A DNA stretch of 64,000 bases from a plasmid: assembly GCF_056712565.1 (NCBI RefSeq), contig NZ_JBWXXM010000004.1; one strand, given 5' to 3'. A program made the position numbers and the translations under genes. The notes beneath the pieces are model-generated. The model saw only the letters and a program-made list of their open reading frames with translations, made no database searches and was not told where the DNA came from. Positions 23,796 through 42,905 of the stretch are shown in pieces; position 1 is the stretch's first letter; each line of letters begins with the position of its first letter.

Positions 23796-24493
23796 AGATT
23801 GCTTTAGTTCTTCGCTCTGGTGGTGACTATAACGCTTCCGATGTGCAGTGGCTGGTTAATCAACTGCCAAAAGACTATGAAATTATTTGCCTGACAGACC
23901 TGAAGTGTTTACATGTACCTGGCGTCAAAGTTATCCCATTGATCAACCAGTGGCAAAAGTGCCGTGGCTGGTGGGCGAAAATCGAGTTGTTCCGACCGGA
24001 TATAACCGATGATCTGTTCTATCTGGATTTGGACACGGTTATTGCCGGTGATATACGCCCAATCCTAGAGCATCCACCAACCAGCTTCACCATGCTTAGG
24101 GATTTTTACCATCCACAATATCGTGGCAGCGGTGCCCTGTGGATACCAAATAGTGTTAAAGCGCATATCTGGAGTTCATTCTGGCAAGATCCGGAAGGTT
24201 GGATTTCTCGTTGTGTCACTACTGAGTGCTGGGGTGACCAGGGGTTCTTACGAAAGGTTATGGGCGATGATACACCAGCATTTCAGGATCTGTATCCAGG
24301 ATGGTTTGTAAGTTACAAGGCCGATGTTGTGGAACCTGGTTCAAAATATGCGAGCGCGCGTTACTCCAGGGGGAATGGGGCATTACCAAAAGACTGCCGA
24401 ATAATCTTTTTCCACGGCAAACCGCGACCTCGCGAAGTGTCAGAGGATTGGCTTCCCCTTATCAGCTCATTTTTTGAGCGAGAATTAGAATAA
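23792..24493 (+). CDS. hypothetical protein (possible nucleotide-sugar transferase fold)
   Basis: 233 aa; YLDLDTVI DxD-like motif; overlaps ppp stop by 4 nt. Confidence 0.4.
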
Positions 24494-24494
24494 T

Positions 24495-24511
24495 ATTGCT
24501 CTAATAATTCC
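24495..24511 (+). promoter_or_regulatory. C1-operator-like site
   Basis: ATTGCTCTAATAATTCC. Confidence 0.5.
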
Positions 24512-24519
24512 ATATTTTT

Positions 24520-24549
24520 AAAACGTGATGTACACTCATCACGTTTTTT
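24520..24549. terminator. perfect hairpin terminator flanked by two inverted operator-like sites
   Basis: AAAACGTGATG-TACACT-CATCACGTTTT with flanking A/T runs. Confidence 0.55.
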
Positions 24550-24560
24550 ATTAGAGCAAT
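24544..24560 (-). promoter_or_regulatory. C1-operator-like site (inverted)
   Basis: TTTTATTAGAGCAAT, reverse complement ATTGCTCTAATAAAA. Confidence 0.4.
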
Positions 24561-24574
24561 CTACAAGGTGCACT

Positions 24575-24793
24575 ATGTGGCCATTCCGACGGAAATATCA
24601 CTACTGGCTGATCGCCTTTGTTACGCCGACCGGCGGTATCAGGCATGTCATCACCAGGTATCGCAACAAGAGACTCACCTTAGCCAGAATTTTACAGGCT
24701 GCCATAGGTGAGGGACTGGATACAAATTGCGTAGTCCTTCCTCCTTCATACTTAGGAAAAATGACCGAAGCACAAGCTAATACGGAACTTTGA
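24575..24793 (+). CDS. hypothetical small protein
   Basis: 72-aa ORF preceding and abutting the 420-aa ORF. Confidence 0.35.
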   Translation: MWPFRRKYHYWLIAFVTPTGGIRHVITRYRNKRLTLARILQAAIGEGLDTNCVVLPPSYLGKMTEAQANTEL

Positions 24794-24794
24794 A

Positions 24795-26057
24795 ATGATC
24801 ACTTCAGCACAAAACCAATCAATCGAAAATGTATCTATCCCTGACGTCCTGAATGCCGGTATCCCGGCCATTATCCAGAACATCCGGGCCGCGCAACGCC
24901 GCGTTAGTTGTGATGACCTCACAGCGCGTTTTTTTGATAATGCGGTTCAGTCAGCGGAGATGCTTCACGCACAGCTTATTGATGTTTATAACGCAGAAGC
25001 TGATAGCCATAACTCCCTGGTAGATGCAGCTGAAAATATGCAGTTGGATCTCGGTCTGAAGGGTAAAGAAATTGAAGAGCTTCAGCTACAAATTGAACAT
25101 TTGAAACGCCAGCAACAGGACGCGATCGACGATGCGACGCATGACGCCAACCAGCGTGCTGATAATGCCGAACGTATAAGCATTGAGCTGGAAACAAAAC
25201 TCAATGAAATGACCGCGATGGTTGAACTGCGGAACTCACAGATTTCAACGCTAAAATCTCAATATAAAGAGATCATGAAACTTGATCCTTTTAACCTTGA
25301 GAAACGCTATAACAAAGCTAAAAGCGAGCGACAGGAACTGCGTAAGCAGGTCGCCGACCTTAACCAACAGCTCAAAAAAACTATTAAAGATGCAAGCGAA
25401 GCGCGCGTGGCATTTGCTAATAAAAAAGCAGAGGTTACCGCGCTGGTTAATGAGAATGCCAAATTTGCGACGCTCAAGAAGGAAATGTATGGCATTACTG
25501 AGCGCCGTTTCCCTGCAAGCAAACTTCATCCGACGTTAGGGCAAATCTCCTTCTTCCCGCGCCTCCTGGCTTATGGGATCTCATCGCCTAAAGAGTTCAA
25601 TAACGAGCGTCCTTATATCGTTTCTAAGCTGGACTTTGCTTATCAGTTCTGCTGCGACATGGGCTATGCCATTGATATCCGAATCAACGAATGGTTGATG
25701 CCAAACTTCCAGCCGTTGGCAATTTTCCGCGAGTTCCAGCCGGAAGGTTGGGTAGAGTTCTTCCATGAATTGATCTGTAAAGAGATGGAAAGCCGCCGCC
25801 CGGAATTGGTCCGTCGAGTTGAGTGGGCGCAAGAGGTTATGTTGGCAGATGCAGAGCTGCCGTTCGAACCGGAATTCATTGATGATCTGGCAACTAAAGG
25901 GTTGCATACCCTGTTTGATGTGGTTACCCGCCGTCATGAGCAGTTGGTTGTCGAATTGGGTTTAGAGGAAACAGCGGCAAGAAGACTTCTCGATGTTTGC
26001 TATGCACGTAGCGATGCATGGGAAAAAGAGAACGGCGGCACTATTTACGTCCGCTGA
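24795..26057 (+). CDS. coiled-coil protein with globular C-terminal domain
   Basis: 420-aa ORF; long heptad-like central region. Confidence 0.55.
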   Translation: MITSAQNQSIENVSIPDVLNAGIPAIIQNIRAAQRRVSCDDLTARFFDNAVQSAEMLHAQLIDVYNAEADSHNSLVDAAENMQLDLGLKGKEIEELQLQIEHLKRQQQDAIDDATHDANQRADNAERISIELETKLNEMTAMVELRNSQISTLKSQYKEIMKLDPFNLEKRYNKAKSERQELRKQVADLNQQLKKTIKDASEARVAFANKKAEVTALVNENAKFATLKKEMYGITERRFPASKLHPTLGQISFFPRLLAYGISSPKEFNNERPYIVSKLDFAYQFCCDMGYAIDIRINEWLMPNFQPLAIFREFQPEGWVEFFHELICKEMESRRPELVRRVEWAQEVMLADAELPFEPEFIDDLATKGLHTLFDVVTRRHEQLVVELGLEETAARRLLDVCYARSDAWEKENGGTIYVR

Positions 26058-26079
26058 TAGTTACAGCGTCACTTTTAAT

Positions 26080-26110
26080 GCTGGTGGAGTGCGCCCACCA
26101 GCATTTTTTT
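26080..26110 (+). terminator. rho-independent terminator
   Basis: GCTGGTGG-AGTGCGC-CCACCAGC followed by ATTTTTTT. Confidence 0.65.
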
Positions 26111-26129: not shown

Positions 26130-26636
26130 TTGAGTATTTTCAATAAACACGCACACCAGGAACGTCCGTATATCGTCATAGTCGATATTGATGGAACAAT
26201 ATCAGAGGCAACTGAAGACAGACTGCATTTGCTTCCGCCACCAGGTAAAGGTGCATTAACAAAGGACTGGAACGAGTTTAATCTCGCCTGTGACACCGAT
26301 ACTCCCATCACTCCGGTTATTGATATGGTGCGCCAGTTATTTAACGTTTACACGGTCTGGTTTGTAACCGGGCGCTGTGAGATCGCAAGGGATAAAACAC
26401 GAGCCTGGCTGCGTAAGCACGTAACAAATGGGGCTGAGCCTTTGCTATCTATGCGTCCTGCCACCGATGACAGAAATGACGGCCCTGCAAAGATTGATCT
26501 CCTGAAGAAAATTGGTCTAAGTAAAATTGCGTTCGCGCTGGAAGATAAGATTGAAGTGGCGCGTGTTTTCAGGAGTCACGGCGTACTTACGTTAATGGTC
26601 AGGGAATATGAAAATGCACTTCTTCATCAACAATAA
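26130..26636 (+). CDS. HAD-superfamily phosphatase-like protein
   Basis: 168 aa with DxDGT motif (IVIVDIDGTIS). Confidence 0.55.
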   Translation: MSIFNKHAHQERPYIVIVDIDGTISEATEDRLHLLPPPGKGALTKDWNEFNLACDTDTPITPVIDMVRQLFNVYTVWFVTGRCEIARDKTRAWLRKHVTNGAEPLLSMRPATDDRNDGPAKIDLLKKIGLSKIAFALEDKIEVARVFRSHGVLTLMVREYENALLHQQ

Positions 26637-26652
26637 TTGCTCTAATAAATCT
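26636..26652 (+). promoter_or_regulatory. C1-operator-like site
   Basis: ATTGCTCTAATAAATCT right after the HAD gene stop. Confidence 0.55.
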
Positions 26653-26734
26653 TGATTTTTAAAACAGAGAAAGTGAAAATTAAAACATGCCGCAAGGCGC
26701 GGCATGTATCCAATCAATCACAGGAGCTGAAAAT

Positions 26735-26821
26735 ATGAACACGGCATTCAAAATCATTATGGCCGCGATCTATTTCTGGCTGTTCTCTATCACTTTTGGC
26801 GGCATCGTCGCACATGGGTAA
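26735..26821 (+). CDS. 28-aa hydrophobic peptide (single TM)
   Basis: MNTAFKIIMAAIYFWLFSITFGGIVAHG with AGGAG RBS 7 nt upstream; below ORF-track cutoff. Confidence 0.35.
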   Translation: MNTAFKIIMAAIYFWLFSITFGGIVAHG

Positions 26822-26830
26822 GGGGGATGT

Positions 26831-27409
26831 ATGAAAGGCGAAGTGAAAGAGCGCGGCATGATTTTTAACGATGAGATGGTCCGGGCAATTCTTGGCGGGA
26901 ATAAAACACAGACTCGCAGGATTGTTGAAGAAAAATTCTATGGACGGGCAGTGGCCGCAGAGTTGCTTGCCAAGCATTGTCCATATGGTCAACCGGGCGA
27001 TCGTATTTGGGTTCGCGAAACCTACCGGGTACATGGCAAAGCGACGGACGTCGCAACGCTGGTTTATCGCGCAAGCGTGCGTAACTCCTGGACAGAACAA
27101 ACGCACCGGGTTCCGGTCGAGGTTTGTAATAAACCAGTATCAGAAAAGTGGACGCCATCAATTCACATGCCGCGCTGGGCATCGCGCATTCTTCTGGAAA
27201 TTACCGACGTGCGTGTGGAACGGCTGCATGACATGAGCGAGGCAGATGCTAAAGCAGAAGGCGCAACTCCGGCGACGTACAAGATTACGCCATCTGAAGC
27301 TGTTTATCGCGTTGGTTTTGGTGATATCTGGCGCAGTATTTACGGGCAGGATAACTGGCTATCTAACCCGTTGGTATGGGTAATCGAGTTTAAGCGCATT
27401 CAGGAATAA
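26831..27409 (+). CDS. ASCH-domain protein (YqfB-like)
   Basis: GGNKTQTRR near N-terminus and C-terminal VWVIEFKRI resemble ASCH (GxKxxExR ... YVIEFK); alternative start 26858. Confidence 0.5.
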   Translation: MKGEVKERGMIFNDEMVRAILGGNKTQTRRIVEEKFYGRAVAAELLAKHCPYGQPGDRIWVRETYRVHGKATDVATLVYRASVRNSWTEQTHRVPVEVCNKPVSEKWTPSIHMPRWASRILLEITDVRVERLHDMSEADAKAEGATPATYKITPSEAVYRVGFGDIWRSIYGQDNWLSNPLVWVIEFKRIQE

Positions 27410-27412
27410 ACC

Positions 27413-28291
27413 GTGAGTATGCATCAAGTCGTCAGCTTTTCAGGTGGACGAACATCGGCTTATCTCGTTCATCTGATGGAAGCACAGCGAAAAGCTGGCG
27501 CTAGCGTCCATTTCATTTTTATGGATACCGGCTGTGAACATCCTCTGACGTATCGCTTTATTCGTGAGGTTGTGAAGTTCTGGAACGTACCGCTAACGGT
27601 GTTGCAGGTCGATATAAATCCAGAAATTGGGAAGCCAAATGGTTATACGGAATGGGAACCAAAGGATATTCAGACGCGAATGCCGGTGCTTAAACCGTTT
27701 ATGGACATGGTTAAAAAGTACGGTACGCCATACATCGGCGGCGCGTTCTGTACTGAAAGGCTAAAACTCACCCCTTTCACGAAATATTGCGATGACCATT
27801 TTGGGCGAGGGAATTACATCACATGGCTGGGTATTCGTGCGGACGAACCCCGTAGGCTGAAACCGAAACCGGGCGTCCGGTATCTTGCCGAACTGTCAGA
27901 TTTTGATAAGTCGGATGTTATCCGGTGGTGGCGAAAACAACCTTTTGATTTGCAAATCCCGGAGCACCTCGGGAACTGTGTTTTTTGCATCAAAAAGTCA
28001 ACGCAAAAGCTGGGGCTTGCATGTAAAGACGAACCAGGTCTGATGCGGGTTTTTAATGAACTGGTTACAGGCAAACACGTCAGGGATGGTCATCGCAGAA
28101 CAGGTAAAGACGTTATGTACCGTGGCCACCTGACGCTTGACGGGATTGCCAGAATGTATGCCGACAGTGACTACAGAAATTTGTATCAGGCGATGGTGCT
28201 GGCCAAGCGGTTTGATACTGGTTCGTGTTCCGAATCATGTGAAATCTGGGGTGACCAATTGGAGTTGAAATTCGAAGAGGTAGTGGAATGA
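27413..28291 (+). CDS. PAPS-reductase-like / PP-loop ATP pyrophosphatase family protein
   Basis: 292 aa; PP-loop SFSGGRTSAYLV near N-terminus. Confidence 0.55.
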   Translation: MSMHQVVSFSGGRTSAYLVHLMEAQRKAGASVHFIFMDTGCEHPLTYRFIREVVKFWNVPLTVLQVDINPEIGKPNGYTEWEPKDIQTRMPVLKPFMDMVKKYGTPYIGGAFCTERLKLTPFTKYCDDHFGRGNYITWLGIRADEPRRLKPKPGVRYLAELSDFDKSDVIRWWRKQPFDLQIPEHLGNCVFCIKKSTQKLGLACKDEPGLMRVFNELVTGKHVRDGHRRTGKDVMYRGHLTLDGIARMYADSDYRNLYQAMVLAKRFDTGSCSESCEIWGDQLELKFEEVVE

Positions 28292-28491
28292 CAATCGTAA
28301 AAACCCATACCGGTACCGTGATCACCAAAGATGGCCCGAAGGTAAAAAAACTGCACCAAACAGAGCGGATGTGGGTCGTTGGCAAAAACGAGTTTTACCA
28401 CAAAGAAACTGGACGCCGCCATTTTGCAGAAAATACGCGCCGCCGACTGCTGTTAGACACCATCAAGCCTATCGAGGTGAAGCATGTTTAA
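28288..28491 (+). CDS. hypothetical small protein
   Basis: 67-aa ORF, start overlaps upstream stop. Confidence 0.35.
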   Translation: MTIVKTHTGTVITKDGPKVKKLHQTERMWVVGKNEFYHKETGRRHFAENTRRRLLLDTIKPIEVKHV

Positions 28492-28723
28492 ACAGAACGA
28501 AAAAGCTATCGCTCAAATTGCTGATTATATCCCGCGTGCGTGCCGGGGTATGCAGTTGCAGGAAGCCAAAGCGCGCCTGGAGAAAAAAATTGCGCTCTAT
28601 ATTGATGACGGCTGTGATGCCGCCGTTCTTAACGCGGCGTTCGCACCAGCTCTTAACTGTCACACTCGGGAGTCTTTTTTTTCATGCATCGCAGCGCAAC
28701 TCCGCCAAGGAGGCAACCAGTGA
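28484..28723 (+). CDS. hypothetical protein ending in ..AAQLRQGGNQ
   Basis: 79-aa ORF; 3-prime junction AAGGAGGCAACCAGTGAG repeated at 29925. Confidence 0.4.
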   Translation: MFKQNEKAIAQIADYIPRACRGMQLQEAKARLEKKIALYIDDGCDAAVLNAAFAPALNCHTRESFFSCIAAQLRQGGNQ

Positions 28724-29364
28724 GTAACCGTTTTTACATGATGTGCTTGCGTGAAATTGTGGGTAATAACGCCTCATTCCATTGCCATAACGGCAATGGT
28801 TACAGTTCTGATATCGATCGCGCTCATGTTTACACGCTGGAAGAAGGCCAAAAAGCCTGGAATTGTGGACGAGATATCGATCAGCCTGTTTGCGCTGATA
28901 GCGTGGATGCAATGGCTGTGTGGCACGTTGATTGCCAGTACATCCCTACAGAAAGCCTGATTGAGTCAGATTGCACTGCGTATGTGGCCTACAAAAAAGG
29001 TAGCTGGAACGGCAACGATGTTTACTGGCTTCAACACGGTGGATTGCCAACAGATGACTTCAGTAAAGCGACCATCTTTAGCGTCGCCAACAAAAACGAA
29101 CCAGGAATAGTTTGGTTGCCATTTTCCATTGCTGATTCAGCAAAGCGCCGGACGTTCAATATCAATAACTTTAACCGCAGAACAATGGTTCAGGGCGCAG
29201 GTTTGGTCATGCCTGACTGGTTGAAAAAGCAGAACAGAAGAAAGAAGTCGCGAAGCGGGAAGGTGCGTTGGAATTGTCCGCATTGCGGAAAAATTACCTG
29301 GCAGTACAGCCCATATGATTTTGAAGGCTGTCGTGATTACAACTGTGAAGGATGGCGAGAATGA
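28719..29364 (+). CDS. Cys-rich hypothetical protein with C-terminal zinc-ribbon-like CPHC..C..C
   Basis: GTG start inside conserved junction with AAGGAGG RBS; about 215 aa. Confidence 0.45.
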
Positions 29365-29948
29365 CAATTGACTATCAGGCACTGCGAGATGCGGCAGTTG
29401 CAGTAGAAACAGAACCTATGCATCAAAATTTTGTGGCGTTTCGTATGGCGTTCACGCCATCGGTGGCACTGGCACTACTGGATGAAATTAAGCGGCTGGA
29501 AGACACAAATATTGATGCTATGTGCCGTATTGCAGAGCTTGAGACTAATCTCGCGGCGCTGGTGGCAGAGAACGCCGGACTGAAACACGCAATGGCCGTA
29601 ACTCTTGAGCATGTGTCGGTCACGGATGCAGGGCAGGCCGGAGTTGCTGCAATGATTATCAACGATGCCCTGCACCACAGCGAAACTCCAGCTACCGATG
29701 CTTTTCTAGCTGAAGTGAAGACTGAAGCACGCAAGGAAGGCGCTTATTTTGTGGCGAACAGAATGCTGGCTGCCTGGGAAGCTGGTTTTATTGATGATAC
29801 CGCGAAGAACGCCGCGGATATTGCCCGGATGATTCTTACCTCTACTGAGTTTATGGCTAATGCGCCGGAAGGCGATTTTGACCGCTCATTCTCTGATGGC
29901 GTTCTCGAAGATATCGCCGCCCAGCTTCGAAAAGGAGGCAACCAGTGA
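29352..29948 (+). CDS. Ead/Ea22-like protein, paralog A
   Basis: 198 aa; N-terminal IDYQALRDAA and ALALLDE motifs; ends ..AAQLRKGGNQ. Confidence 0.45.
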   Translation: MARMTIDYQALRDAAVAVETEPMHQNFVAFRMAFTPSVALALLDEIKRLEDTNIDAMCRIAELETNLAALVAENAGLKHAMAVTLEHVSVTDAGQAGVAAMIINDALHHSETPATDAFLAEVKTEARKEGAYFVANRMLAAWEAGFIDDTAKNAADIARMILTSTEFMANAPEGDFDRSFSDGVLEDIAAQLRKGGNQ

Positions 29949-30697
29949 GCAAGATTGACTATCAGGCACTGCGTGAGGCGGCGGAACGTGCAATTCCAGC
30001 AATGGAACGCCTGTTAATGTTGCCAGCTGATGATGATTTGTTAAGTGAACAGGAACTTAAAGATTACGGTGTGGATATTGATGCGCTCAACGCCTTCAAA
30101 TTTCTGGCCGGACCAGAAACCGTGCTGGCACTACTGGATGAACGGGAAAGAAACCAGCAATACATCAAACGCCGTGACCAGGAGAACGAGGATATTGCGC
30201 TAACGGTAGGGAAGCTGAGAGTTGAGCTTGAGGAAGTAAAACAACACGCTGAAGAATTATCCGAAACCAAGGCTGTTCGTAACCAATGGCGGCCAGATAT
30301 TTGCCCAATAACCGGACGTGCATTTTTCATGTGGATTGAGCATCCAACATTGGGAAATGTGCCGACATATGGTGGCCCATTAGATAGTTACACCATTCCA
30401 ACAAAGGACGGTGACGGTGAGTTTTCATGTGAGCGTTACGATCATGATTTTGGCGGTTGGGTAGAAAGCGAATGTCTTGGGTTATATCTGATTGATGATA
30501 GAGAACAATGCAGGGTCTACGAACTGGAGGAACGCGTTAAGGAACTGGATGCTCGGGAAATATCGCTCCCGGAACGTAGCAGCATGCTTCATCGAACAGA
30601 TTTTCACGATGATTACCAAACGGTAATGGCATACAAAGTTTCTGAGGTCATCGCTGCAATCCGCGCCGCTGGCATCCGTATCAACGGAGGTGAGTAG
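29945..30697 (+). CDS. Ead/Ea22-like protein, paralog B
   Basis: 250 aa; N-terminal IDYQALREAA and PETVLALLDE; GTG start in repeated junction. Confidence 0.45.
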   Translation: MSKIDYQALREAAERAIPAMERLLMLPADDDLLSEQELKDYGVDIDALNAFKFLAGPETVLALLDERERNQQYIKRRDQENEDIALTVGKLRVELEEVKQHAEELSETKAVRNQWRPDICPITGRAFFMWIEHPTLGNVPTYGGPLDSYTIPTKDGDGEFSCERYDHDFGGWVESECLGLYLIDDREQCRVYELEERVKELDAREISLPERSSMLHRTDFHDDYQTVMAYKVSEVIAAIRAAGIRINGGE

Positions 30698-30867
30698 TGC
30701 GTGTGGTATGTATCAGCTTGTTACCGTACCCGACTCGTTTTTGGGCTTCTGCGCTAATTGCAAAGCCACATGTCCTGATGGCTGACAACATCATCCCGGC
30801 ACCAAAGCGCCGCCATACCGGTATTGCAGCGGCACGACGAGCAGCAAAGAGACGCAGGAGAGCAAAG

Positions 30868-31046
30868 CGATGAAAAACCGTAAGGCAAAACGACTTTTTT
30901 TACAGCGGCCTGTGCGTGTGGTGGAGCTGGTTATTAGCAACCATAAGATAGCGGTACTCCATCCATTTGGTCAGGTGGCTTTTGCCGCAAAGCGTAAGCC
31001 TACTGCGTCACAGAACAGGCGGAAGAAAGGGTACGCAGTAAGATGA
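30868..31046 (+). pseudogene. small basic protein gene (paralog of next ORF) interrupted at a T9 homopolymer
   Basis: ATG at 30868 reads MKNRKAKRLF then shifts frame in T-run 30893-30901; with T8 the frame gives a 58-aa protein ending ATGA-coupled to next ORF. Confidence 0.3.
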
Positions 31047-31231
31047 AAAACCGTAAAGCAAAGATTCTGTTAGTTCGTAGAAACGCTCCTGGCGTCTGGC
31101 AGTGGGTGAGACTCAGCAACCGACGGATGGGGTTGATGAAATATTACGGGATGATGGATTGTGGTTTTTGCAAAAAGCCCAGCGCGGCGCAAAACCGCTG
31201 GAAAAACCATTTGCGCACTAAAGGAGAGTGA
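31043..31231 (+). CDS. small basic protein with Cys pair
   Basis: 62 aa MKNRKAKILLVRR...; shares N- and C-terminal motifs with the upstream frameshifted copy. Confidence 0.4.
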   Translation: MKNRKAKILLVRRNAPGVWQWVRLSNRRMGLMKYYGMMDCGFCKKPSAAQNRWKNHLRTKGE

Positions 31232-31232
31232 T

Positions 31233-31748
31233 ATGGCGTTAACACACCGCGAACTCTGTCAAATTGCGTACAAGTTCCTTAAGCGCAACGGGTTCAAGGT
31301 TTGTTTTCATGACCGCTTTATAGCTGTAACCAGTACCGGAGAACAGCCAGATGCTATGGGGTTCAGAAATTCAGCATCATGCCTGATAGAGGCGAAGTGT
31401 TCTCGTGCTGACTTGTTGGCAGATAGAAAAAAGCGTTTCCGTAAAAATCCCTCACTTGGCATGGGCGACTGGCGATTCTTTATTAGTGAGCCGGGAATTA
31501 TTTCAATTGAGGATTTACCACCTGGCTGGGGATTACTTCACGTTGTTAACGGAAGAGTACGGAAAGTACATGGGTGGCCCAAGGGTAATTGCTGTTGGGG
31601 TAATCCTGACGATAAGCCATTTACTGGAAATAAGCAGGTTGAATGCGATTACATGTTATCTGCATTAAGGCGCATGGAGTTGAGAGGGCACCTTAATGAA
31701 ATATATGACGGTGTAATTGTTAATAAGAAAGAAGGAAACGCGGCATGA
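31233..31748 (+). CDS. PD-(D/E)xK nuclease-fold protein
   Basis: 171 aa from ATG 31233 (RBS AAGGAGAG); motif ..EQPDAMGF..(12)..LIEAKCS. Confidence 0.5.
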   Translation: MALTHRELCQIAYKFLKRNGFKVCFHDRFIAVTSTGEQPDAMGFRNSASCLIEAKCSRADLLADRKKRFRKNPSLGMGDWRFFISEPGIISIEDLPPGWGLLHVVNGRVRKVHGWPKGNCCWGNPDDKPFTGNKQVECDYMLSALRRMELRGHLNEIYDGVIVNKKEGNAA

Positions 31749-32944
31749 TCACTATTACCAAAGAGCGACTGCTGACAATCAAGCAGTGGCGCGAAACATA
31801 CGGACCTGGTAGCAACGTTGTACTGCCAGCAGAAGAAGCGGAAGAGCTGGCACGGATTGCTCTGGCATCGCTGGAAGCAGAACCGGTGGCATGGACTGAT
31901 GAAGAGGAACTGCGCGATGTCAGGAAGTATGGTTTCGGTGAGATATTTCAGTGTCCGCCAGATAAATATGCGGACCCGCGTCGTGTAATCTCGCTGTATC
32001 GCGAGCTGCCAGCACCGGTAGTGCCAGATGATTGGCAACTCGTACCTAAGAAAATAACACTGGAAATGGAATGTGCTCTATCAAAAGCTGATAGCTATGA
32101 AATTGGTTGGCTATGGGCATTGGCAGCCGCACCTAAATACGAAGTACAGAACGCTAAACGCGTGCAAAACGCGCTTAACGCCTGCCGCGCCGCCATGCTT
32201 CAGTCCGGAAACTTTCGGGAAAACAAGAATTCGTCAACCAATAATTTTCGGGAAATCGCGGAAACGTCAACCAACTATCCGGCAATTCCTAGTGAGGTGT
32301 TGTCCGCAATCCTGAAGGTTGCCAGGATTCGTGCCGATTTCGATGATTTTGACGGTGACAGGCGAGGTATCGGTGATTGTCTGGATGAGGCTGAGCAAGA
32401 GCTTATCGTTACCATTAACAAATATGCCAGTCAGTTGGCAGCAGAACCGATAGCGACTAATGACGTTCGAGAGCAGCAGACAGCCGTTCCGCCAGTTCCG
32501 GAAATACAGGATGATGTCGCGCAAGCAATTGAAAATCTCAAGCAGAAGTTAGTGGAATGCAATCGCTATAACTACTGCGCAGATGCAGTTAAAGGCGTAG
32601 AGGATGCCTGCCACGCTGCCATGCTTCAGGGTAGGGAACGCCTTGTTCTGGATGCCGCTACCAGAACCGCCGCAGGAGGCGAAATGATGGATGTAAAAGA
32701 GAAGGTTTTGCAGGTGATGCGTTCCCGGGCTGCCCTGCAAGATAAAGCTCTCGGCGGGGAATATCCATTCAGGATGGCAACCTGGAATCTGCGGTTGGCA
32801 ATGGAGAAGGAATTTCCTGATGAAGAATGGCGGTCGGCAGATTTGCGCAAAATTCTTATGGAGCTGGCTAAAGATGGAACAGTATCCAAAGATACCCATG
32901 CCAGCCGGATTGGTCAGGCGGTATGGAGACTGGAGGTGAGGTAA
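31745..32944 (+). CDS. hypothetical protein with internal repeat
   Basis: 399 aa; repeated segments NALNACRAAMLQSGNFRE and GVEDACHAAMLQGRE. Confidence 0.5.
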   Translation: MITITKERLLTIKQWRETYGPGSNVVLPAEEAEELARIALASLEAEPVAWTDEEELRDVRKYGFGEIFQCPPDKYADPRRVISLYRELPAPVVPDDWQLVPKKITLEMECALSKADSYEIGWLWALAAAPKYEVQNAKRVQNALNACRAAMLQSGNFRENKNSSTNNFREIAETSTNYPAIPSEVLSAILKVARIRADFDDFDGDRRGIGDCLDEAEQELIVTINKYASQLAAEPIATNDVREQQTAVPPVPEIQDDVAQAIENLKQKLVECNRYNYCADAVKGVEDACHAAMLQGRERLVLDAATRTAAGGEMMDVKEKVLQVMRSRAALQDKALGGEYPFRMATWNLRLAMEKEFPDEEWRSADLRKILMELAKDGTVSKDTHASRIGQAVWRLEVR

Positions 32945-33020
32945 TAAGCTGGCCTGAAGCATTTGCGATTGTAGGCGTAGCTATGGCGATTGCCGCTATT
33001 TTTATCTTCTGGGGGTAACG

Positions 33021-33254
33021 ATGGGAAAATTAACTTTTGTAGTCGAATTTGAGGATGGCAAAGAGCCACCTGTTAGCGCCAATCTTGATGTTGCTGGTGG
33101 CAGGCTGGTTTCGGTTCTATTTGGTGATTACCGCGACGACTTCTTTCAGCCTGAAGAAGTTGATGTAGTGCGAGAAGCATTAAACGAGCTAAGTGTTGAT
33201 AACGATGATGCTCATGCGGAAATCATCAAAAAAATGGAACTGCTAACTCACTAA
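33021..33254 (+). CDS. hypothetical acidic small protein
   Basis: 77-aa ORF. Confidence 0.4.
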   Translation: MGKLTFVVEFEDGKEPPVSANLDVAGGRLVSVLFGDYRDDFFQPEEVDVVREALNELSVDNDDAHAEIIKKMELLTH

Positions 33255-33302
33255 ATTATCAATTATGGTGCTATCACCTACGACACCGAGAGAAAATTTA
33301 TA

Positions 33303-33425
33303 ATGTCAAAAGTAAATGTTTTGATTTTTTCAGCAATTGTTGGCTTTGGTTTTACTGCCGGAGTGCAGATTTATATTACGTGGGAAAAAATCATCAACTA
33401 CGCATGGAGTTGTTTTATTAAGTGA
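33303..33425 (+). CDS. 40-aa hydrophobic peptide
   Basis: MSKVNVLIFSAIVGFGFTAGVQIYITWEKIINYAWSCFIK; weak RBS; below ORF-track cutoff. Confidence 0.25.
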   Translation: MSKVNVLIFSAIVGFGFTAGVQIYITWEKIINYAWSCFIK

Positions 33426-33431
33426 GGTAAG

Positions 33432-33726
33432 TATGTGGAGAGGTAATAATCATGGCAAAAGCCAGATGATACTTACCGAATATAAGCTAGACCACAAAAC
33501 CAATAAATCACGCTCAGTATATTTGCTCCGGCACAATAGCCGCGTAAGAAATACCGTGCTGGAACAAAATCTGACAGTTGAAATGGATAATTGCGGGGGA
33601 TTCAAGCCAACAATTTCGCTTGATGATTTTCCTCGTGGTTTAAGCGAAAGAGAAGCAATGCTGAAATTAGCAGAATGGCTACAAAGATTAAGCATTGCTA
33701 TTGAAGATAACTGGTCTGAACCTTAA
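33432..33726 (+). CDS. hypothetical protein
   Basis: 98 aa from ATG 33432 with GAGGT RBS; ORF-track frame opens at 33337. Confidence 0.4.
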
Positions 33727-33732
33727 ATTTAT

Positions 33733-34107
33733 ATGATGACACTAAAACATTTTCTTGACCGCCCATTATGGGCGGCAGCCGCAGGCTATGACTTTAATTA
33801 TATGGATTGCATGTCTTATACTGCCAATGCATACGACCATTCGTTCATCCTGCTGTTTAATTCTTTAAGAATATTGCCGGAAACAGAAGTTGGAGAGCTT
33901 CATTTATGGCTATTGGGCTTTATCGCGGCTGTCGTTGGTATTGCTGTATGGCCTTTTATTTTCTGGCTGGTGGCTGTTGTAGTGTGGTTTAAGTGCAAGA
34001 CATACCGGAAAAAGTATTTCTTAGGTGATGGAATGACTGATATTGCCAAAATGAACATTGAAGAATGGACTAAGGAATGTGAAAAGAAATGGCGCAAAAA
34101 GAAATGA
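33733..34107 (+). CDS. membrane protein (two TM segments)
   Basis: 124 aa; LWLLGFIAAVVGIAVWPFIFWLVAVVVWF. Confidence 0.45.
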   Translation: MMTLKHFLDRPLWAAAAGYDFNYMDCMSYTANAYDHSFILLFNSLRILPETEVGELHLWLLGFIAAVVGIAVWPFIFWLVAVVVWFKCKTYRKKYFLGDGMTDIAKMNIEEWTKECEKKWRKKK

Positions 34108-34739
34108 CCAGAATCACTGAAGAGCGCATATCAGAGATTATTTCCCGTATCGAAATGTATGGTCACGGTGCTGGATATACGGCAGATGAAGTATTGGAAA
34201 TAGCCCAGCAGATGCTGGCCTTGAGACAAAAAGAGCAACATGAAAGTAATACGTGTAGATTGAATTTTGAGCATTGGCTGGAACAGCAACGCGGAAAAAT
34301 CGATGTGGACTGTGGTTGTGTGTCCACTGAAACATTCATGCACTGGCTGCGGGTAGCTTACGAGGCTGGCAACTATCCGGATATTCCGGATAGTTCGGTG
34401 CCAGCGCCAGGAAAGGGCGTCACCGGTGAACGTATCCGCATTAAGCCGCATGTTTATCGCGAACTGGTTAACCGTCTCCACGATACAGCGATCAAGTGTG
34501 CTGGCACCCAGCAATTACGAGAAAGAATTAGCCGTGTTTTGGGCGACGTTATTACACCAGATCATCATAAACAAGCCGAGAAAAGTGACCTGGAAAGGTG
34601 TCACCTTGAGGCGGCATTAAACATTAAGCCGGGGCATACGCTTGGCATTATTGATGCACTATTGGTTCATAAGATGGCCAGGGCTTTATTGCCGCTGGTG
34701 GCTGAAAAGCATGAGGTGGACCATGCCAACGAAAGCTGA
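34089..34739 (+). CDS. hypothetical protein
   Basis: 216-aa ORF. Confidence 0.45.
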   Translation: MAQKEMTRITEERISEIISRIEMYGHGAGYTADEVLEIAQQMLALRQKEQHESNTCRLNFEHWLEQQRGKIDVDCGCVSTETFMHWLRVAYEAGNYPDIPDSSVPAPGKGVTGERIRIKPHVYRELVNRLHDTAIKCAGTQQLRERISRVLGDVITPDHHKQAEKSDLERCHLEAALNIKPGHTLGIIDALLVHKMARALLPLVAEKHEVDHANES

Positions 34740-35006
34740 ATTACAGGTGCGCGTAGATGAGCTGAAAAAGAGAACGCGAGCCTCAAAAAAATGCTGTCGC
34801 GGGCGGAAAGGGAATTATCAGGCAAATTATTGCCAGAAGAACTGCCACCAGCAGATATACTAGATCGAGTGTCCCAGTGGATGAAGTCTTTTGGTTTACC
34901 GTGGGAGGCTTTTTGGTGCTACGACCATCGCAGATGGTGTGATGAACTTGATAGCAATTTTCCCTACTTTGCGGAAGGGAACACCTGCCCTCAATGCAGG
35001 GGATAG
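34729..35006 (+). pseudogene. small coiled-coil / Cys-containing protein split by frameshift at an A-run
   Basis: Frame 1 MPTKAELQVRVDELKK.. and frame 2 ..ENASLKKMLSRAERELSGK..CPQCRG join into one about 93-aa protein if one extra A is present at 34771-34775. Confidence 0.3.
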
Positions 35007-35341
35007 CATTTGACGAAATCGATCACCCTATCCTGAACTTCAGAAAGAAGGTCTTTTTCACGCGCCAGGACGTCAGGATATTGACGTTCTGGCCTTACCA
35101 GATGCCGGAGCTTCCCATTAAGCAGAATGGCCTCAGAAAACACTTTTACGCTGTGCTTTATCCCCTCTGTTTCACTTTTCAGCGTCAAAATAAAGCGCAA
35201 TTGCTTATTAGCCTGATTCGGATTCAATACACGAATTTGCAGTTCGTCTATGCTGTTTCGCAATGGGATTGATGCCACCACACTGGTGCAGTCTCTGATT
35301 GTCTGAATTGAACGGCTAACATTGAGAACGTTATTGTGCAT
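34991..35341 (-). CDS. hypothetical protein on opposite strand
   Basis: 116-aa ORF with balanced composition, convergent with upstream plus-strand genes; no strong RBS. Confidence 0.3.
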   Translation of the reverse strand: MHNNVLNVSRSIQTIRDCTSVVASIPLRNSIDELQIRVLNPNQANKQLRFILTLKSETEGIKHSVKVFSEAILLNGKLRHLVRPERQYPDVLAREKDLLSEVQDRVIDFVKCYPLH

Positions 35342-35373
35342 GTGCCTGATCCACTAACTCCTGGAGGTTTCTT

Positions 35374-35625
35374 GTGTCAGATCGAAATATAGCAGCTAAA
35401 AGCCAGGAAGAGCGAGACAAGGTGAACGTAGACCTTGCCGCCAGCGGCGTTGCTTACAAAGAACGGCTGAATATACCTGTGATTGCAGAGCAGGTGGCCC
35501 GTGAGCAACCGGAAAACCTGCGCGCCTATTTCATGGAACGGCTACGGCACTACCGGCAGTTAAGCCTCCAGTTGCCAAAAGGGAGCGATCCGGTGTATCA
35601 GAACGAGGATGCACCAAAAAAATAA
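35374..35625 (+). CDS. hot: DNA polymerase III theta-subunit homolog (HolE-like)
   Basis: 83 aa from GTG with GGAGG RBS; [43 protein letters not shown] matches HolE. Confidence 0.8.
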
Positions 35626-35712
35626 CGGCAAGATGGGGGAGAAATGTGATTAGCCCCCAGCGTGGCGCGCCTACAAACCCCGCTTTCACAAACTATGCCT
35701 TTTCAATGTATA

Positions 35713-35728
35713 CTGTATGAATAAACAG
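35713..35728. promoter_or_regulatory. LexA box (SOS operator) upstream of humD
   Basis: CTGTATGAATAAACAG fits CTGT-N8-ACAG, about 20 bp before the humD start. Confidence 0.75.
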
Positions 35729-35748
35729 TATCATTGAGGTAAAACGCT

Positions 35749-36138
35749 ATGGGCTTCCCTTCTCCTGCGGCGGATTATGTTGAAAGCCGAATTTCTCTTG
35801 ATCAGCAGATAATTAGACATCCATCAGCAACCTACTTCATGCGGGCAGCTGATAGCCATCACCGTGAGGGAATATTGCAGGGTGCTTTGCTGGTGGTTGA
35901 TTCTTCGCTTACTCCAGTTGATGGTTCGCTGCTTGTGTGCGCTATGGAGGGTGAATATCGCATAAAGAGATACAGGAAGTATCCGCGCCAGCACCTGGAG
36001 GATTTAAGCACCGGGAAGAAAGAGGCGTTACCAGTAGATGACGATGGATGCACGGGCAGTAATGCTGTTTTTGGTGTGATCACTCATGTCATCAATGATG
36101 CCCGAAGTGGGGAGTTTGATGATTGTCCGGTTATTTAA
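35749..36138 (+). CDS. humD: UmuD-like SOS mutagenesis protein
   Basis: 129 aa; LexA/UmuD-type self-cleaving fold (CAMEGEYRIKRY); preceded by LexA box. Confidence 0.75.
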   Translation: MGFPSPAADYVESRISLDQQIIRHPSATYFMRAADSHHREGILQGALLVVDSSLTPVDGSLLVCAMEGEYRIKRYRKYPRQHLEDLSTGKKEALPVDDDGCTGSNAVFGVITHVINDARSGEFDDCPVI

Positions 36139-36210
36139 GCTGCAAAGGGCTGGTGCTTTATGCCTGTGAGGTTTATAATTGTGTACACATAACGAGTACA
36201 CGAGGTGTTT

Positions 36211-36432
36211 ATGCAATCCATTAACTTCCGTACCGCGCGCGGCAACCTTTCTGAAGTGCTCAACAATGTTGAAGCCGGGGAAGAGGTTGAAATCACCCGC
36301 AGAGGCCGTGAGCCAGCAGTAATTGTCAGCAAGGCTACTTTCGAAGCCTACAAAAAAGCGGCGCTGGATGCTGAATTTGCATCCCTGTTTGACACCCTGG
36401 ACTCCACCAACAAGGAACTGGTTAACCGATAA
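36211..36432 (+). CDS. phd: Phd antitoxin
   Basis: [49 protein letters not shown], 73 aa. Confidence 0.9.
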
Positions 36433-36812
36433 TGAGGCATATATCACCGGAAGAACTTATTGCGCTTCATGATGCGAATATAAGCCGCTACGGCGGCCTG
36501 CCTGGCATGTCAGATCCGGGCAGGGCAGAGGCCATTATCGGGAGAGTTCAGGCCAGAGTTGCCTACGAAGAGATCACCGACCTTTTCGAAGTCTCCGCCA
36601 CCTACCTGGTGGCTACAGCGAGAGGGCATATATTCAATGATGCCAATAAGCGTACCGCGCTAAACAGCGCGCTGCTATTTCTACGCCGTAACGGGGTGCA
36701 GGTATTTGATTCACCTGAACTGGCAGACCTTACTGTAGGCGCTGCGACTGGCGAGATATCTGTATCTTCTGTCGCCGACACGTTACGTAGATTGTATGGT
36801 TCTGCGGAGTAG
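36432..36812 (+). CDS. doc: Doc toxin (Fic-fold kinase)
   Basis: 126 aa; start overlaps phd stop; Doc motif [23 protein letters not shown]. Confidence 0.9.
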
Positions 36813-36816
36813 ATTA

Positions 36817-36996
36817 ATGGCACGCAAATACAACAAATTGTCCCTTGAAGCGTTAAAGATGCTTCTTGATGGCGTGAGTCGCCGCAAGGTAAAGCAATAC
36901 CTGGTTGGTAAGCAAATTGGAGTCAGGACCGCTATTGCTGTGTTATGCCGTCAGGAAATGGTTGTGCTTAAACAGAGAATGCCGGGCAGCAGATAA
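36817..36996 (+). CDS. hypothetical small basic protein
   Basis: 59 aa from ATG 36817 (GGAG RBS). Confidence 0.35.
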   Translation: MARKYNKLSLEALKMLLDGVSRRKVKQYLVGKQIGVRTAIAVLCRQEMVVLKQRMPGSR

Positions 36997-37023
36997 AGCC
37001 CAATCAGTGATTAAAGGTGTGAT

Positions 37024-38067
37024 GTGAAAGCCGTAATTACTCCCTTTGTACAGAAAGAGCTTGGCCTCGCCACGTTCAAAGTGGATCAGGAGGTCAGAAA
37101 ACTGGTGGAGGCTGGCCGTAAATTTATCATGGAGCCGGTGCCGCGTGAGTTAATCGAGCACATGGAAGACGGCCTCGTTGTTACCGAGCAAACCATGGCA
37201 ACAAATGAGGCGTTGCAGCCGTTTTTTAACAGCGATGAACTGTTTCGCCGTATTGGTGGAATTGACGCGCTGGTGGCGTGGTTGCGTAGGAAAGAGGGTC
37301 AATGCCAGGCCGCAGATCGTAGTTGGTGTGACAACCATATTGTCCACGCTGAACGAGACAATAGCGCGGTGTTGTTGTGCTGGCATCACGATAACCATTA
37401 CCGGATGCGTGGTTTTAATGAGCTGAAAGAAACGCTGCACAATAATCGCGTTAACTGGATACTGGATGTCGCCCGTCAGGAAATGGGCCTTTCAAATAGC
37501 CATGATTTAAGTATTCAGGAGCTGTGCTGGTGGGCTTTCATGCGCAACATGATGCACCTGATGCCGGAAGAAGTCTGCCGCATATCAATAAATAAGATGA
37601 AGGCTACTCCGCAGGATAGCGGACCTCTGAAAGAGGCGGATATTCGCCCGTATGACGATCGCGCTACAGCATATGTTCAGATGATGGAAGAACGCGCCGC
37701 GCCGATGCGTGCAAAAGTATGCCCTGTGGATGTTGACTCCGACCCAGGTATGGCGCATTTCAAAATACCAAAACTTCAATCGCTAAAATTGCCCGAGTAC
37801 ATGGACTTTGTGGCTTCCCGTCCATGCTGTGGCTGTGGAGCTGCGGGAGCTGGCGCTCACATTACGCCTTATATCGTTCGTCATAGTCGATTATGCGCGC
37901 ATGACATTTATGCTATTCCTCTGTGCCAGTCATGCCAGCGTGATATTGAGCGTGACCGCGATAATTGGGAGAAGACGCACGGTAGGCTGGCGATGCATCA
38001 ACGATTGTTCTTTGATTACGCGCTTGGAGTCGGCGCTATCACAAGTCACTCGTCGAGCGTTAGATAA
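37024..38067 (+). CDS. hypothetical protein with C-terminal Cys/His cluster
   Basis: 347-aa ORF; [18 protein letters not shown]. Confidence 0.5.
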
Positions 38068-38068
38068 A

Positions 38069-38085
38069 ATTGCTCTAATGTATTG
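38069..38085 (+). promoter_or_regulatory. C1-operator-like site upstream of lpa
   Basis: ATTGCTCTAATGTATTG. Confidence 0.5.
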
Positions 38086-38155
38086 CTATTTCTTTAATCG
38101 AGGGTATTATATTCCACGTTGATTAGTTGACATGGGCTAATCAGTAGGTGACAGG

Positions 38156-38608
38156 ATGTTACTTAACTGGCAGGGACGCCACTTCATGGAAATAAATCAC
38201 TCACGAATAACATCGTACGAGATTGCGGATTACATGATCCGCACTAAATCTCTTCTATCAGCGAAAGAACTCGCAGCAATTCTTGAAAAGGAATACCCGC
38301 ATCTGGATGTCGATAAGCGCGATGTTTATCTGCGCTTAAAGGCTATCGCTGTGTCTAAGTATTCGTCTGTTTTGATTGATGACAGTACACGCCCACGTAG
38401 ATTTCAGATCCACTCTCTGAATCCTGAATTCTTTCGCCGCAGCCGCGCTCCGCGCCGGTTTGATGAAAAACTCCAGAACGAACTCTATATGACGCAGGAC
38501 GAAAAGGAACGCCGGGAGCACCAGCCTTGGGTGATGGCGCGTCAACTTTTCAATAAGGTGGTCCGTCAGCACCGTCATTACGGTAATGCCACATCCGCAC
38601 GTATCTGA
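38156..38608 (+). CDS. lpa: late promoter activator-like protein
   Basis: About 140-150 aa ORF between operator and pacA, matching the P1 lpa position; alternative start 38186. Confidence 0.55.
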   Translation: MLLNWQGRHFMEINHSRITSYEIADYMIRTKSLLSAKELAAILEKEYPHLDVDKRDVYLRLKAIAVSKYSSVLIDDSTRPRRFQIHSLNPEFFRRSRAPRRFDEKLQNELYMTQDEKERREHQPWVMARQLFNKVVRQHRHYGNATSARI

Positions 38609-38694
38609 TTGATTGCTTGCCCGTTCCGGGCCTTTTGACATGTGACTTTCGTTACCCTCGCGTCAAAAAGAGTTTTATACGAAAGGAAGCATAA

Positions 38695-39887
38695 GTGACC
38701 TGGGACGATCACAAGAAGAATTTTGCTCGCCTGGCGCGAGATGGTGGTTACACCATCGCACAATATGCCGCCGAGTTTAATCTCAACCCAAACACCGCAC
38801 GTCGTTATCTCCGTGCATTCAAAGAAGACACCGGAACAGCGGACAGCCGTAAGCCAAATAAGCCTGTCAGAAAACCACTAAAAAGCATGATCATTGATCA
38901 CGCTAATGATCAACGTGCAGGTGATCACATTGTGGCTGAAATGGCTGAAAAACAAAGAGTTAATGCTGTTGTCAGTGCCGCAGTCGAGAACGCGAAGCGC
39001 CAGAATAAGCGCATAAATGATCGTTCTGATGATCATGACGTGATCACCCGCGCCCACCGGACCTTACGTGATCGCCTGGAACGCGACACCCTGGATGATG
39101 ATGGTGAACGCTTTGAATTCGAAGCTGGCGATTACCTGATAGATAACGTTGAAGCGCGGAAGGCCGCGCGCGCTATGTTGCGTCGGTCCGGGGCTGATGT
39201 TCTGGAAACCACTCTTCTGGAAAAGTCTCTCTCTCATCTCCTTATGCTGGAGAACGCCAGGGATACGTGTATTCGCTTGGTTCAGGAAATGCGCGATCAG
39301 CAAAAAGACGATGATGAAGGAACTCCGCCTGAATACCGTATCGCGAGCATGCTAAACAGCTGTTCCGCGCAGATAAGCAGCCTGATCAACACCATTTACA
39401 GCATCCGGAATAACTATCGAAAAGAAAGCCGGGAGGCGGAAAAGCACGCTTTGTCTATGGGGCAAGCTGGCATTGTAAGCTGGCATACGAACGAAAGCGT
39501 GAAAACAACTGGTCAGTGCTGGAGGCAGCTGAATTCATCGAGGCGCATGGAGGGAAAGTACCGCCCCTGATGCTGGAGCAAATCAAAGCCGATCTGCGTG
39601 CTCCTAAGACCAATACCGATGATGAGGAAAGGCAAACAGCCGTCGGTGGCCCTTCTCTTGAAGATCTGGACAAAGTTGCGCGAGAACGGGCCGCCAACCG
39701 CCGCGCCGATGCCGCATTGTGGATTGAGCAGCGTAGGGAAGAAATCGCCGATATCGTTGATACAGGCGGTTATGGAGATGTTGATACTGAAGGTGTATCA
39801 AACGACCCATGGCTGGAACAAGACCTGGACGAAGACGAGGAGGAAGACGAAGAAGTTACCCGCAAGCTATACGGGGATGATGATTAA
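38695..39887 (+). CDS. pacA: PacA small terminase subunit, reading frame interrupted near 39450
   Basis: Frame 1 (38695-39570) and frame 0 (to 39887) join seamlessly if the TTT run at 39450-39452 were TTTT; reconstructed length 397 aa. Confidence 0.7.
38888..39046. other. pac: pac packaging site (4 + 3 TGATCA/G hexamers)
   Basis: TGATCA at 38888, 38895, 38907, 38922 and TGATCG/TGATCA at 39018, 39030, 39041 inside pacA. Confidence 0.75.
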
Positions 39888-41371: not shown

Positions 41372-41395
41372 CTCATTGACCATGCCGGATGGAAA

Positions 41396-42247: not shown

Positions 42248-42341
42248 TGATCCTCCTCCAGAATTGACATGGCCAACAACTCACAGCGGATTACACTGGG
42301 AGTTGTTGGCCACCATTATAGAAGGATCCAACGAAAATAAT

Positions 42342-42567: not shown

Positions 42568-42806
42568 AATTATGCCTCACTGTATTGACAACACAGAGCC
42601 TGAAGCTCTGACCTACTGTTTCACCCATGATCCATGCTGGGGTAATCTAACAACATTGCGCTGTGTGTAAGATGAGCAATGCATAGCTGTAATGCCGTTG
42701 TATAAGGTTTCCCTGTTTGCTCATTTCCTTCTGAGCCGCTCTACAACGCTGAAGACACATTAAATAGTGAATCCAAAGTCGTATTACGAAACGGCGGCAA
42801 AACTAT

Positions 42807-42822
42807 AATTTATTAGAGCAAT
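42807..42822 (-). promoter_or_regulatory. C1-operator-like site
   Basis: AATTTATTAGAGCAAT, reverse complement of the operator consensus. Confidence 0.55.
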
Positions 42823-42888
42823 TGTCAAACAACTATGAAAAACAATCCAGTTTTTGGCTGGTGGAGTGGGATTTTTCTCTCAAAATTT

Positions 42889-42905
42889 ATTGCTCTAATA
42901 ATTCT
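42889..42905 (+). promoter_or_regulatory. C1-operator-like site
   Basis: ATTGCTCTAATAATTCT. Confidence 0.55.

Follow-up and report, generated by a model that had tools for sequence, protein, structure and literature searches.

The pmgQ-pmgR boundary in a P1-type phage-plasmid

The window analyzed here, a 64,000-nt stretch of plasmid DNA (contig NZ_JBWXXM010000004.1 of RefSeq assembly GCF_056712565.1), belongs to a P1-type phage and shows 99.5% identity over 2 kb to P1, P7, SJ46 and others. The 66-nt element studied here (24495-24560) fills the 81-bp gap between its upstream neighbor, the pmgQ ORF (+ strand, ending at 24493), and the ATG of pmgR, and all neighboring genes around it lie on the + strand. 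pmgR (24575..24793, +; from the ORF list and the P1 annotation, with its ATG at 24575) is an essential head-completion gene (PMC9024508), and pmgS (24795..26057, +; P1 annotation) is the second gene of the pmgR-pmgS unit. The operon upstream is pmgN-pmgO-pmgP-ppp-pmgQ, to which the P1 record assigns its own predicted promoter and the C1 operator Oppp/Op83; farther upstream of this operon, the same record places the late promoter LPpmgL and the operator O26/Op82.

On its downstream side, pmgR-pmgS is closed by a terminator-like hairpin at 26079-26110 (+ strand; UGCUGGUGGAGUGCGCCCACCAGCA then TTTTTTTC, a T7 run; -15.6 kcal/mol), made up of TGCTGGTGGAGTGCGCCCACCAGCA followed by TTTTTTT and sitting between the pmgS stop (26057) and pap (26130), for which no promoter is annotated in the P1 record. 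This hairpin and the studied element bracket pmgR-pmgS as a two-gene unit. We also looked for an Lpa-type late promoter, with its -22 box, before pmgR and found none nearby.

The element is flanked by two known C1 operators

C1 is the master repressor of P1, and its 22 dispersed asymmetric operators share the 17-bp consensus ATTGCTCTAATAAATTT (PMC8546580). The first-pass annotation had described the outer arms of the element as C1-operator-like, and the two 17-bp sites are in fact known C1 operators, already annotated in P1 and P7: OpmgRa (former Op86a; 24495-24511, + strand, ATTGCTCTAATAATTCC) corresponds to positions 82152-82168 of the P1 record AF234172, and OpmgRb (former Op86b; 24544-24560, ATTGCTCTAATAAAAAA on the - strand) to positions 82201-82217, each matching the consensus at 14/17 positions. 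Sequence and coordinates correspond exactly to those of the same locus in the two phages, that is, to Op86a/Op86b with the promoter PpmgR in P1 and to the pair named Op(sht[a]) and Op(sht[b]) in P7, where the genes are called shtA-shtB. The P1 record describes OpmgRa as a 'monovalent C1-controlled operator', and both sites are annotated as controlling the two genes of the unit, pmgR-pmgS. From the 'former Op86' name an earlier mapping of these operators is implied; a literature search for Op86, Op88, Op72 and Op99 returned unrelated papers only. Because OpmgRa, OpmgRb and PpmgR are annotated in P1 and the operator pair in P7, the core of the operator finding was already known.

The arrangement itself was confirmed at 24495-24560 as first described, with a 13-nt outer inverted repeat, an 11-nt inner repeat and a 6-nt loop. 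The outer arms, ATTGCTCTAATAATTCC (24495-24511) and TTATTAGAGCAAT (24548-24560), form a perfect 13-nt inverted repeat with 40 nt between them, and the centers of the two operators are 49 bp apart. Both sites are perfect matches to consensus positions 1-13, with mismatches confined to the 3' A/T tail. Olpa (Op94), another annotated operator, likewise has 3 mismatches to the consensus, and Oppp has more. With a threshold of at most 3 mismatches to the consensus, the window holds 15 C1-like sites against 0.33 expected from shuffles. Given these matches, C1 would be expected to bind both OpmgRa and OpmgRb, and the operator pair overlaps both of the candidate pmgR promoters considered below.

Conservation of the element among relatives

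Homologues of the element were gathered through a DNA pattern scan, protein-anchored loci, PmgR homologues of 72-84% identity, and divergent phage and plasmid records, and the element measures exactly 66 nt in nine clades. Scanning genome contigs with a PmgS alignment returned only 2 near-identical loci, and two such scans of viral contigs returned almost exclusively relatives at 99-100%, together with one Citrobacter-like locus and one further clade; these scans informed on population variation and not on distant relatives. Phage D6 matches only the first 292 query bases, which lie inside ppp, and no PmgR homologue was detectable in it.

The operator core is kept in all nine clades. At closer range we compared 58 P1-type haplotypes, chosen by protein match and not by operator pattern, in which positions 1-13 of OpmgRa are invariant; only 2/17 columns are polymorphic in site a and 1/17 in site b, against a polymorphic fraction of 0.43-0.45 in the stems of the inner hairpin and in the segment from site b to the ATG. 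The tail of OpmgRb (positions 14-17) reads AAAA in 8/9 clades, giving a T-tract on the + strand, while the same positions of OpmgRa vary.

Beside these nearly invariant operator cores, the immediate flanks (24561-24566 and 24479-24485) are hypervariable among P1-type sequences, reading CTACAA, ATACAA, CTATAA, CCATAA, TTACAA, CCAAAA or CTACAG. One P1-type assembly (GCA_045575315.1, 520-590) carries a damaged operator b, with TTATTAGAAACAAT instead of TTATTAGAGCAAT, and a pmgS broken into ORFs of 36 and 114 aa; it looks like a decaying prophage. Another relative (ENA ERZ27235605, 519-584) has a hairpin of -16.5 kcal/mol in which GCGGCATGGTG and CATCATGCCGT pair 3 nt out of the usual register, and its -10-like TATCAT lies partly within the stem.

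The inner hairpin resembles a one-directional intrinsic terminator

Between the operators lies a hairpin at 24520-24547 (+ strand; arms 24520-24530 and 24537-24547, loop 24531-24536), composed of AAAACGTGATG, TACACT and CATCACGTTTT, an 11-bp perfect inverted repeat around a 6-nt loop. It begins 27 nt after the pmgQ stop and is directly followed by TTTTTTATT. As RNA it folds at -13.4 kcal/mol (z = -5.9), and the full nested structure of operator arms plus hairpin reaches -26.9 kcal/mol (z = -7.3). These z scores, the exact coordinates, and the 15 C1-like sites against 0.33 expected indicate that the bracketed-hairpin pattern is real and not a chance occurrence. In our own terminator scan, the hairpin was scored on a 7-bp stem core (-8.5 kcal/mol, 4 G-C pairs) followed by TTTTTTAT, so the stability of the core is only moderate. 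A standard promoter and terminator scan called neither a hairpin nor a promoter within the element; it missed the hairpin apparently because it extended the stem into the A/T tracts, leaving too few T residues after it.

The T-tract (TTTTTT, then ATT; 24544-24549, + strand) directly follows the stem and overlaps the tail of OpmgRb. It is invariant in the nine clades (alignment columns 51-55), whereas the A-tract upstream of the stem varies among them (AAAA, GAAG, AAAG, GCGG, GAGG), a contrast that points to a terminator working in the + direction only.

Comparative pairing argues in the same direction. Across the nine clades 96% of stem cells are paired, with 3 pairs changed on both sides, compared with 34-73% pairing in controls with slid partner columns; a shuffle control reached the observed pairing values in 22/500 runs. 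P1 (CGTGATG/CATCACG) differs from the Salmonella clade (CATGGTG/CACCATG) by two double substitutions, and Cronobacter-type clades carry CATGGTG/CGCCATG with G.U pairs. Altogether 16 cells are G.U and 1 is A.C, which favors folding of the + strand RNA, since the minus strand would show 16 mismatches and 1 G.U. The hairpin of the ENA ERZ27235605 clade, in its register shifted by 3 nt, is equally good. The number of independent covariation events is small, because the clades outside P1 share related stems. Within the P1-type haplotypes, 10/22 stem columns are polymorphic, and about 7/12 variant types keep pairing and about 5/12 break it, which is near chance for transitions; as about 5/12 break a pair, recent constraint on the stem is not strong.

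In its general build the element is like known intrinsic terminators, with a short G+C-containing stem-loop, a U run, a position just past a stop codon, and compensatory pairing. Compared with canonical terminators, its stem is modest (the 7-bp core described above), its loop is apparently constrained in sequence, which is unusual, and its U-tract doubles as the tail of an operator. The compensatory and G.U changes, which fit the + strand only, and the invariant T-tract make a one-directional intrinsic terminator for the pmgN-pmgQ operon likely. The hairpin looks like a real terminator of this kind, and its predicted termination activity is well supported by comparison, in agreement with the first-pass proposal of a hairpin terminator between the ppp-containing operon and the downstream genes. 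No terminator is marked here in either the P1 or the P7 record, and none is annotated in the examined stretches of AF234172; a literature search found no P1 terminator map, Term-seq or in vitro termination data.

The inner palindrome might instead serve some purpose other than termination: a dimeric protein could bind it as DNA, it could form a cruciform, or its RNA could govern processing or stability, for instance if the long nested stem is a target of RNase III. The palindrome is perfect, the nested structure folds at -26.9 kcal/mol, and the stems are fairly polymorphic within P1-type sequences, all of which would suit such a role. However, the asymmetry between half-sites yields G.U pairs on the + strand (16 vs 1 A.C), to which a symmetric DNA site would be intolerant; the ENA ERZ27235605 clade keeps its hairpin by way of a shifted register; and the invariant T-tract after the stem together with the position past a stop codon are hallmarks of an intrinsic terminator. 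Rfam gave no family match, the only match being to a microRNA at E = 0.37, which is spurious. We regard a non-terminator palindrome as very unlikely.

A candidate pmgR promoter centered on the hairpin loop

The P1 record annotates PpmgR as a predicted sigma-70 promoter at 24496-24524 (+ strand), with -35 TTGCTC (24496-24501) and -10 TAAAAC (24519-24524). Scanning with a simple sigma-70 position weight matrix (PWM), whose scores are approximate, assigned this promoter 4.96, which ranks 5th in the P1 intergenic region. A different hexamer stood out, namely the hairpin loop itself: TACACT (24531-24536, + strand) reads TAnnnT in 9/9 clades (TACACT, TATCAT or TATTAT), shows 0/6 polymorphic columns in the 58 P1-type haplotypes against 10/22 in the stems, and is the -10 of the top sigma-70 PWM match in the intergenic region of every clade. 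The candidate -35 that goes with it, TTCCAT (24508-24513, + strand), was proposed by the PWM scan and overlaps the 3' end of OpmgRa. In P1 it is poor, matching the consensus at 2/6 positions, compared with a fair -35 in most clades (TTTACT with a 16-bp spacer); the hexamers outside P1 are TTTACT, TTTAAT, TTCAAT or TTCATT. The combination TTCCAT-17-TACACT scores 7.1 in P1, within the top 0.36% of window positions, and other clades, with a 16-bp spacer to TATCAT or TATTAT, score 9.0-10.4. For scale, the same approximate matrix gives 11.1 for Plpa, 7.06 for Pc1, 4.06 for P1coi and 12.3 for P4cre, all annotated P1 promoters. The P1 version of the loop promoter is thus weak, with a -35 at 2/6 and an approximate score of 7.1.

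The geometry of this candidate is like that of Plpa (P94) at Olpa (Op94), which drives the late activator gene lpa and is listed in the P1 record as a promoter, not as a predicted one. There too, the 3' end of an asymmetric C1 operator overlaps the -35, and the offsets from the start of Olpa (-35 at +14, -10 at +36, 16-bp spacer) are the same as in the loop model, where, counted from the start of OpmgRa, the -35 begins at about +14 and the -10 at +36. Plpa differs in having one operator, with no inverted second operator over the start and no hairpin around the -10, and its hexamers are much stronger (TTGCTA / TATTAT; 11.1 vs 7.1 here).

From the loop hexamer, transcription would be predicted to start at G24543 (+ strand), 7 nt past the hexamer and at an invariant G (alignment column 49). 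A start there would give a 32-nt leader with the Shine-Dalgarno sequence AAGGTG (24566-24571). We found no P1 start-site map in the literature search. A promoter on the minus strand was also considered and rejected, as the reverse complements of the loop hexamers have no A at position 2 and no T at position 6.

With a start at G24543, the first bases of the transcript would be GUUUUUU (24543-24549). At some E. coli promoters an initial run of U permits reiterative transcription that responds to UTP; that slippage would make initiation UTP-sensitive here as well is pure speculation.

The GenBank annotation of PpmgR might nevertheless be right in detail, with the -35 TTGCTC inside Op86a, the -10 at TAAAAC and not in the loop, and a start within the loop near 24531. 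Op86a would then block the -35, and Op86b, at about +14 to +30, would be a roadblock on the downstream side; the hairpin would remain the terminator of the upstream operon, and the promoter's own transcripts would still be made without the 5' arm. The annotation in AF234172 itself speaks for this version, the same placement of a -35 within an operator is annotated for P2pmgT at OpmgT, again with a -10 of TAAAAC, and the hexamers are present in both P1 and the Salmonella clade. Yet the annotation is a prediction only, as is that of P2pmgT, its PWM score ranks 5th, and its -10 has no T at position 6. A sigma-70 -10 box should not tolerate a G at position 2, and 4/9 clades carry one there (TGAAGC, TGCGGC, TGAGGC), so that this hexamer is not conserved. 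We consider the GenBank version unlikely, though it retains real weight. The loop hexamer, rather than TAAAAC, is probably the -10 of PpmgR.

Distant relatives carry a probable operator pair with a -10-like hexamer at its center

Two more distant loci bear on what the operator pair is for. In a P1-like plasmid of Citrobacter freundii, PmgR is 35% and PmgS 26% identical, and the PmgR of a Pantoea plasmid is 45% identical to that of Citrobacter. At the corresponding position both loci have two inverted copies of a motif other than that of P1 (ACCATACTAATT-N20-AATTAGTATGGT in Citrobacter, AAGATACTAAAATATG-N16-CATATTTTAGTATCTT in Pantoea), and the inner hairpin is absent in both. A -10 sits at the center of each dyad within what appear to be good promoters, TTACAA-18-TATCAT and TTTACA-17-GATATT, respectively. 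An operator pair around the pmgR -10 therefore appears to be a conserved theme, and the stem arms that make the -10 region a terminator appear in the P1, Salmonella and Cronobacter clades only. No consistent helical phase between the operators was found in these distant relatives, the CTAA cores being 53 bp apart in P1 and 31 and 35 bp apart in the two others.

In the Citrobacter plasmid (NZ_CP056338.1), the motif CAGAnnATACTAATT is present in at least 11 copies, many of which lie in gaps that precede operons (for example at 13922, 22540, 45621, 47627, 49239, 49271, 55923, 66590 and 68534). Since it recurs at this many sites, often before operons, it behaves like the operator of this element's own repressor, and these sites are probably the operator set of a C1-like repressor, with a sequence unlike that of the P1 operators. 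The Pantoea motif comes from the pmgR locus alone.

These loci also bear on the first-pass suggestion of a repressor-stabilized loop or a switchable terminator, in which C1 bound to both sites would loop or clamp the DNA and alter termination, making read-through into pmgR-pmgS from the ppp operon dependent on C1. In its favor, inverted operators bracket the terminator at a spacing fixed in nine clades; looping of DNA by C1 has been reported for the c1 control region, and binding of a protein right after a terminator could in principle create a roadblock. However, 49 bp between the operator centers is a very short distance for a loop, and the spacing differs in the distant relatives (CTAA cores 31-35 bp vs 53 bp in P1). 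Termination rests on an RNA hairpin, which a DNA-bound protein would leave unaltered, and an incoming polymerase would run into C1 at site a before it had made the hairpin RNA. The upstream operon, moreover, has its own C1 operators, and the late promoter needs Lpa, itself C1-controlled; with Oppp/Op83 and O26/Op82 upstream and lpa under C1 control, little transcription would arrive while C1 is active. Because the Citrobacter and Pantoea loci keep the operator pair with no hairpin at all, the pair is evidently not there for the terminator's sake. Nor is a switch needed: with C1 bound the upstream operon is itself repressed, and with C1 inactive the terminator simply acts. The loop or switch is thus unsupported, and we regard a C1-dependent terminator as very unlikely. 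Of the first-pass interpretation, the identity of the operators and the terminator hold up and the regulatory switch does not, and the pmgR promoter within the element, which the two operators are annotated to control, had been overlooked.

A probable nested boundary module between two C1-controlled units

Taken together, the comparisons favor a 66-bp boundary module in which C1 operators, a constitutive terminator and a pmgR promoter nested inside that terminator are combined, a reading to which we assign a probability of about 0.7. The element would compactly separate two transcription units, each under C1 control, in a P1-type phage. In the prophage, Op86a and Op86b would repress the sigma-70 promoter of pmgR-pmgS, and the inner hairpin with its T-run would serve as a constitutive intrinsic terminator for rightward pmgN-pmgO-pmgP-ppp-pmgQ transcripts. 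The promoter would use the loop TACACT as its -10 and the weak -35 at the end of Op86a, with a start at about G24543, so that Op86a would cover -49 to -33 and Op86b +2 to +18. Promoters flanked by two repressor sites, one at or upstream of the -35 and one over or after the start, are a familiar arrangement for occluding RNA polymerase; C1 differs in that its sites are asymmetric and it reportedly binds them as a monomer. C1 would likewise occlude this promoter from both sides and leave the terminator itself unchanged.

The same hairpin would treat the two classes of transcript differently. Those from upstream would carry the whole hairpin and stop, while those starting in the element would escape termination, because with either choice of -10 they begin within or after the hairpin and have no 5' arm. 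With the upstream terminator escaped in this way, no -22 box nearby and a strong terminator after pmgS, pmgR-pmgS looks like a short, insulated, C1-controlled unit. The element would explain both the silence of pmgR in the prophage and its shielding from the upstream operon.

In its most specific form the proposal holds that the promoter is built into the terminator, the loop serving as -10, the 5' arm lying in the spacer, and the 3' arm with the U-tract forming the discriminator and first transcribed bases, and that the published -10 is wrong; we give this form even odds. If it is true, the U-tract is also the tail of the C1 operator downstream, and a single palindromic module of 66 bp ends one operon, starts the next and is closed by two molecules of repressor; the hairpin-less Citrobacter and Pantoea plasmids would then represent the ancestral state, a pair of operators around a -10 without stem arms. 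It also suggests a correction to the annotated PpmgR.

Beyond P1 biology, the significance is small, and the element is a tidy but ordinary case of phage gene control; the promoter and terminator detail, predicted by sequence comparison, is a minor refinement, with the loop as -10 the one modestly new point. Its compact natural combination of a terminator, a promoter and two operators in 66 bp might find use as a small module that is both insulated and repressible. Phage-plasmids of the P1 type are common among Enterobacteriaceae, and the element region is carried by 687 plasmid records, which makes correct maps of promoters and terminators useful for interpreting their transcription.

Other C1-related features in the window

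None of the other pairs among the window's 15 C1-like sites brackets a hairpin. An overlapping inverted pair at 10804(+)/10815(-), spanning 10804-10831, is probably the bivalent ban operator Op72, judging by its position relative to P1, and a divergent pair at 42806(-)/42889(+), spanning 42806-42905, corresponds to Oc1d and Oc1e. Window and P1 coordinates differ by 57657 at OpmgT (26636 = P1 84293) but by 51835 at Oc1a (42342 = P1 94177), and from this change the window is about 5.8 kb longer than P1 mod749::IS5 c1.100 between pmgT and c1 (about 26650-42340). Within 26636-26700, OpmgT (Op88) and its predicted promoters are closely followed by a G+C-rich palindrome, CATGCCGCAAGGCGCGGCATG, which our own scan scored as a terminator-like hairpin on the minus strand (-13.6 kcal/mol).
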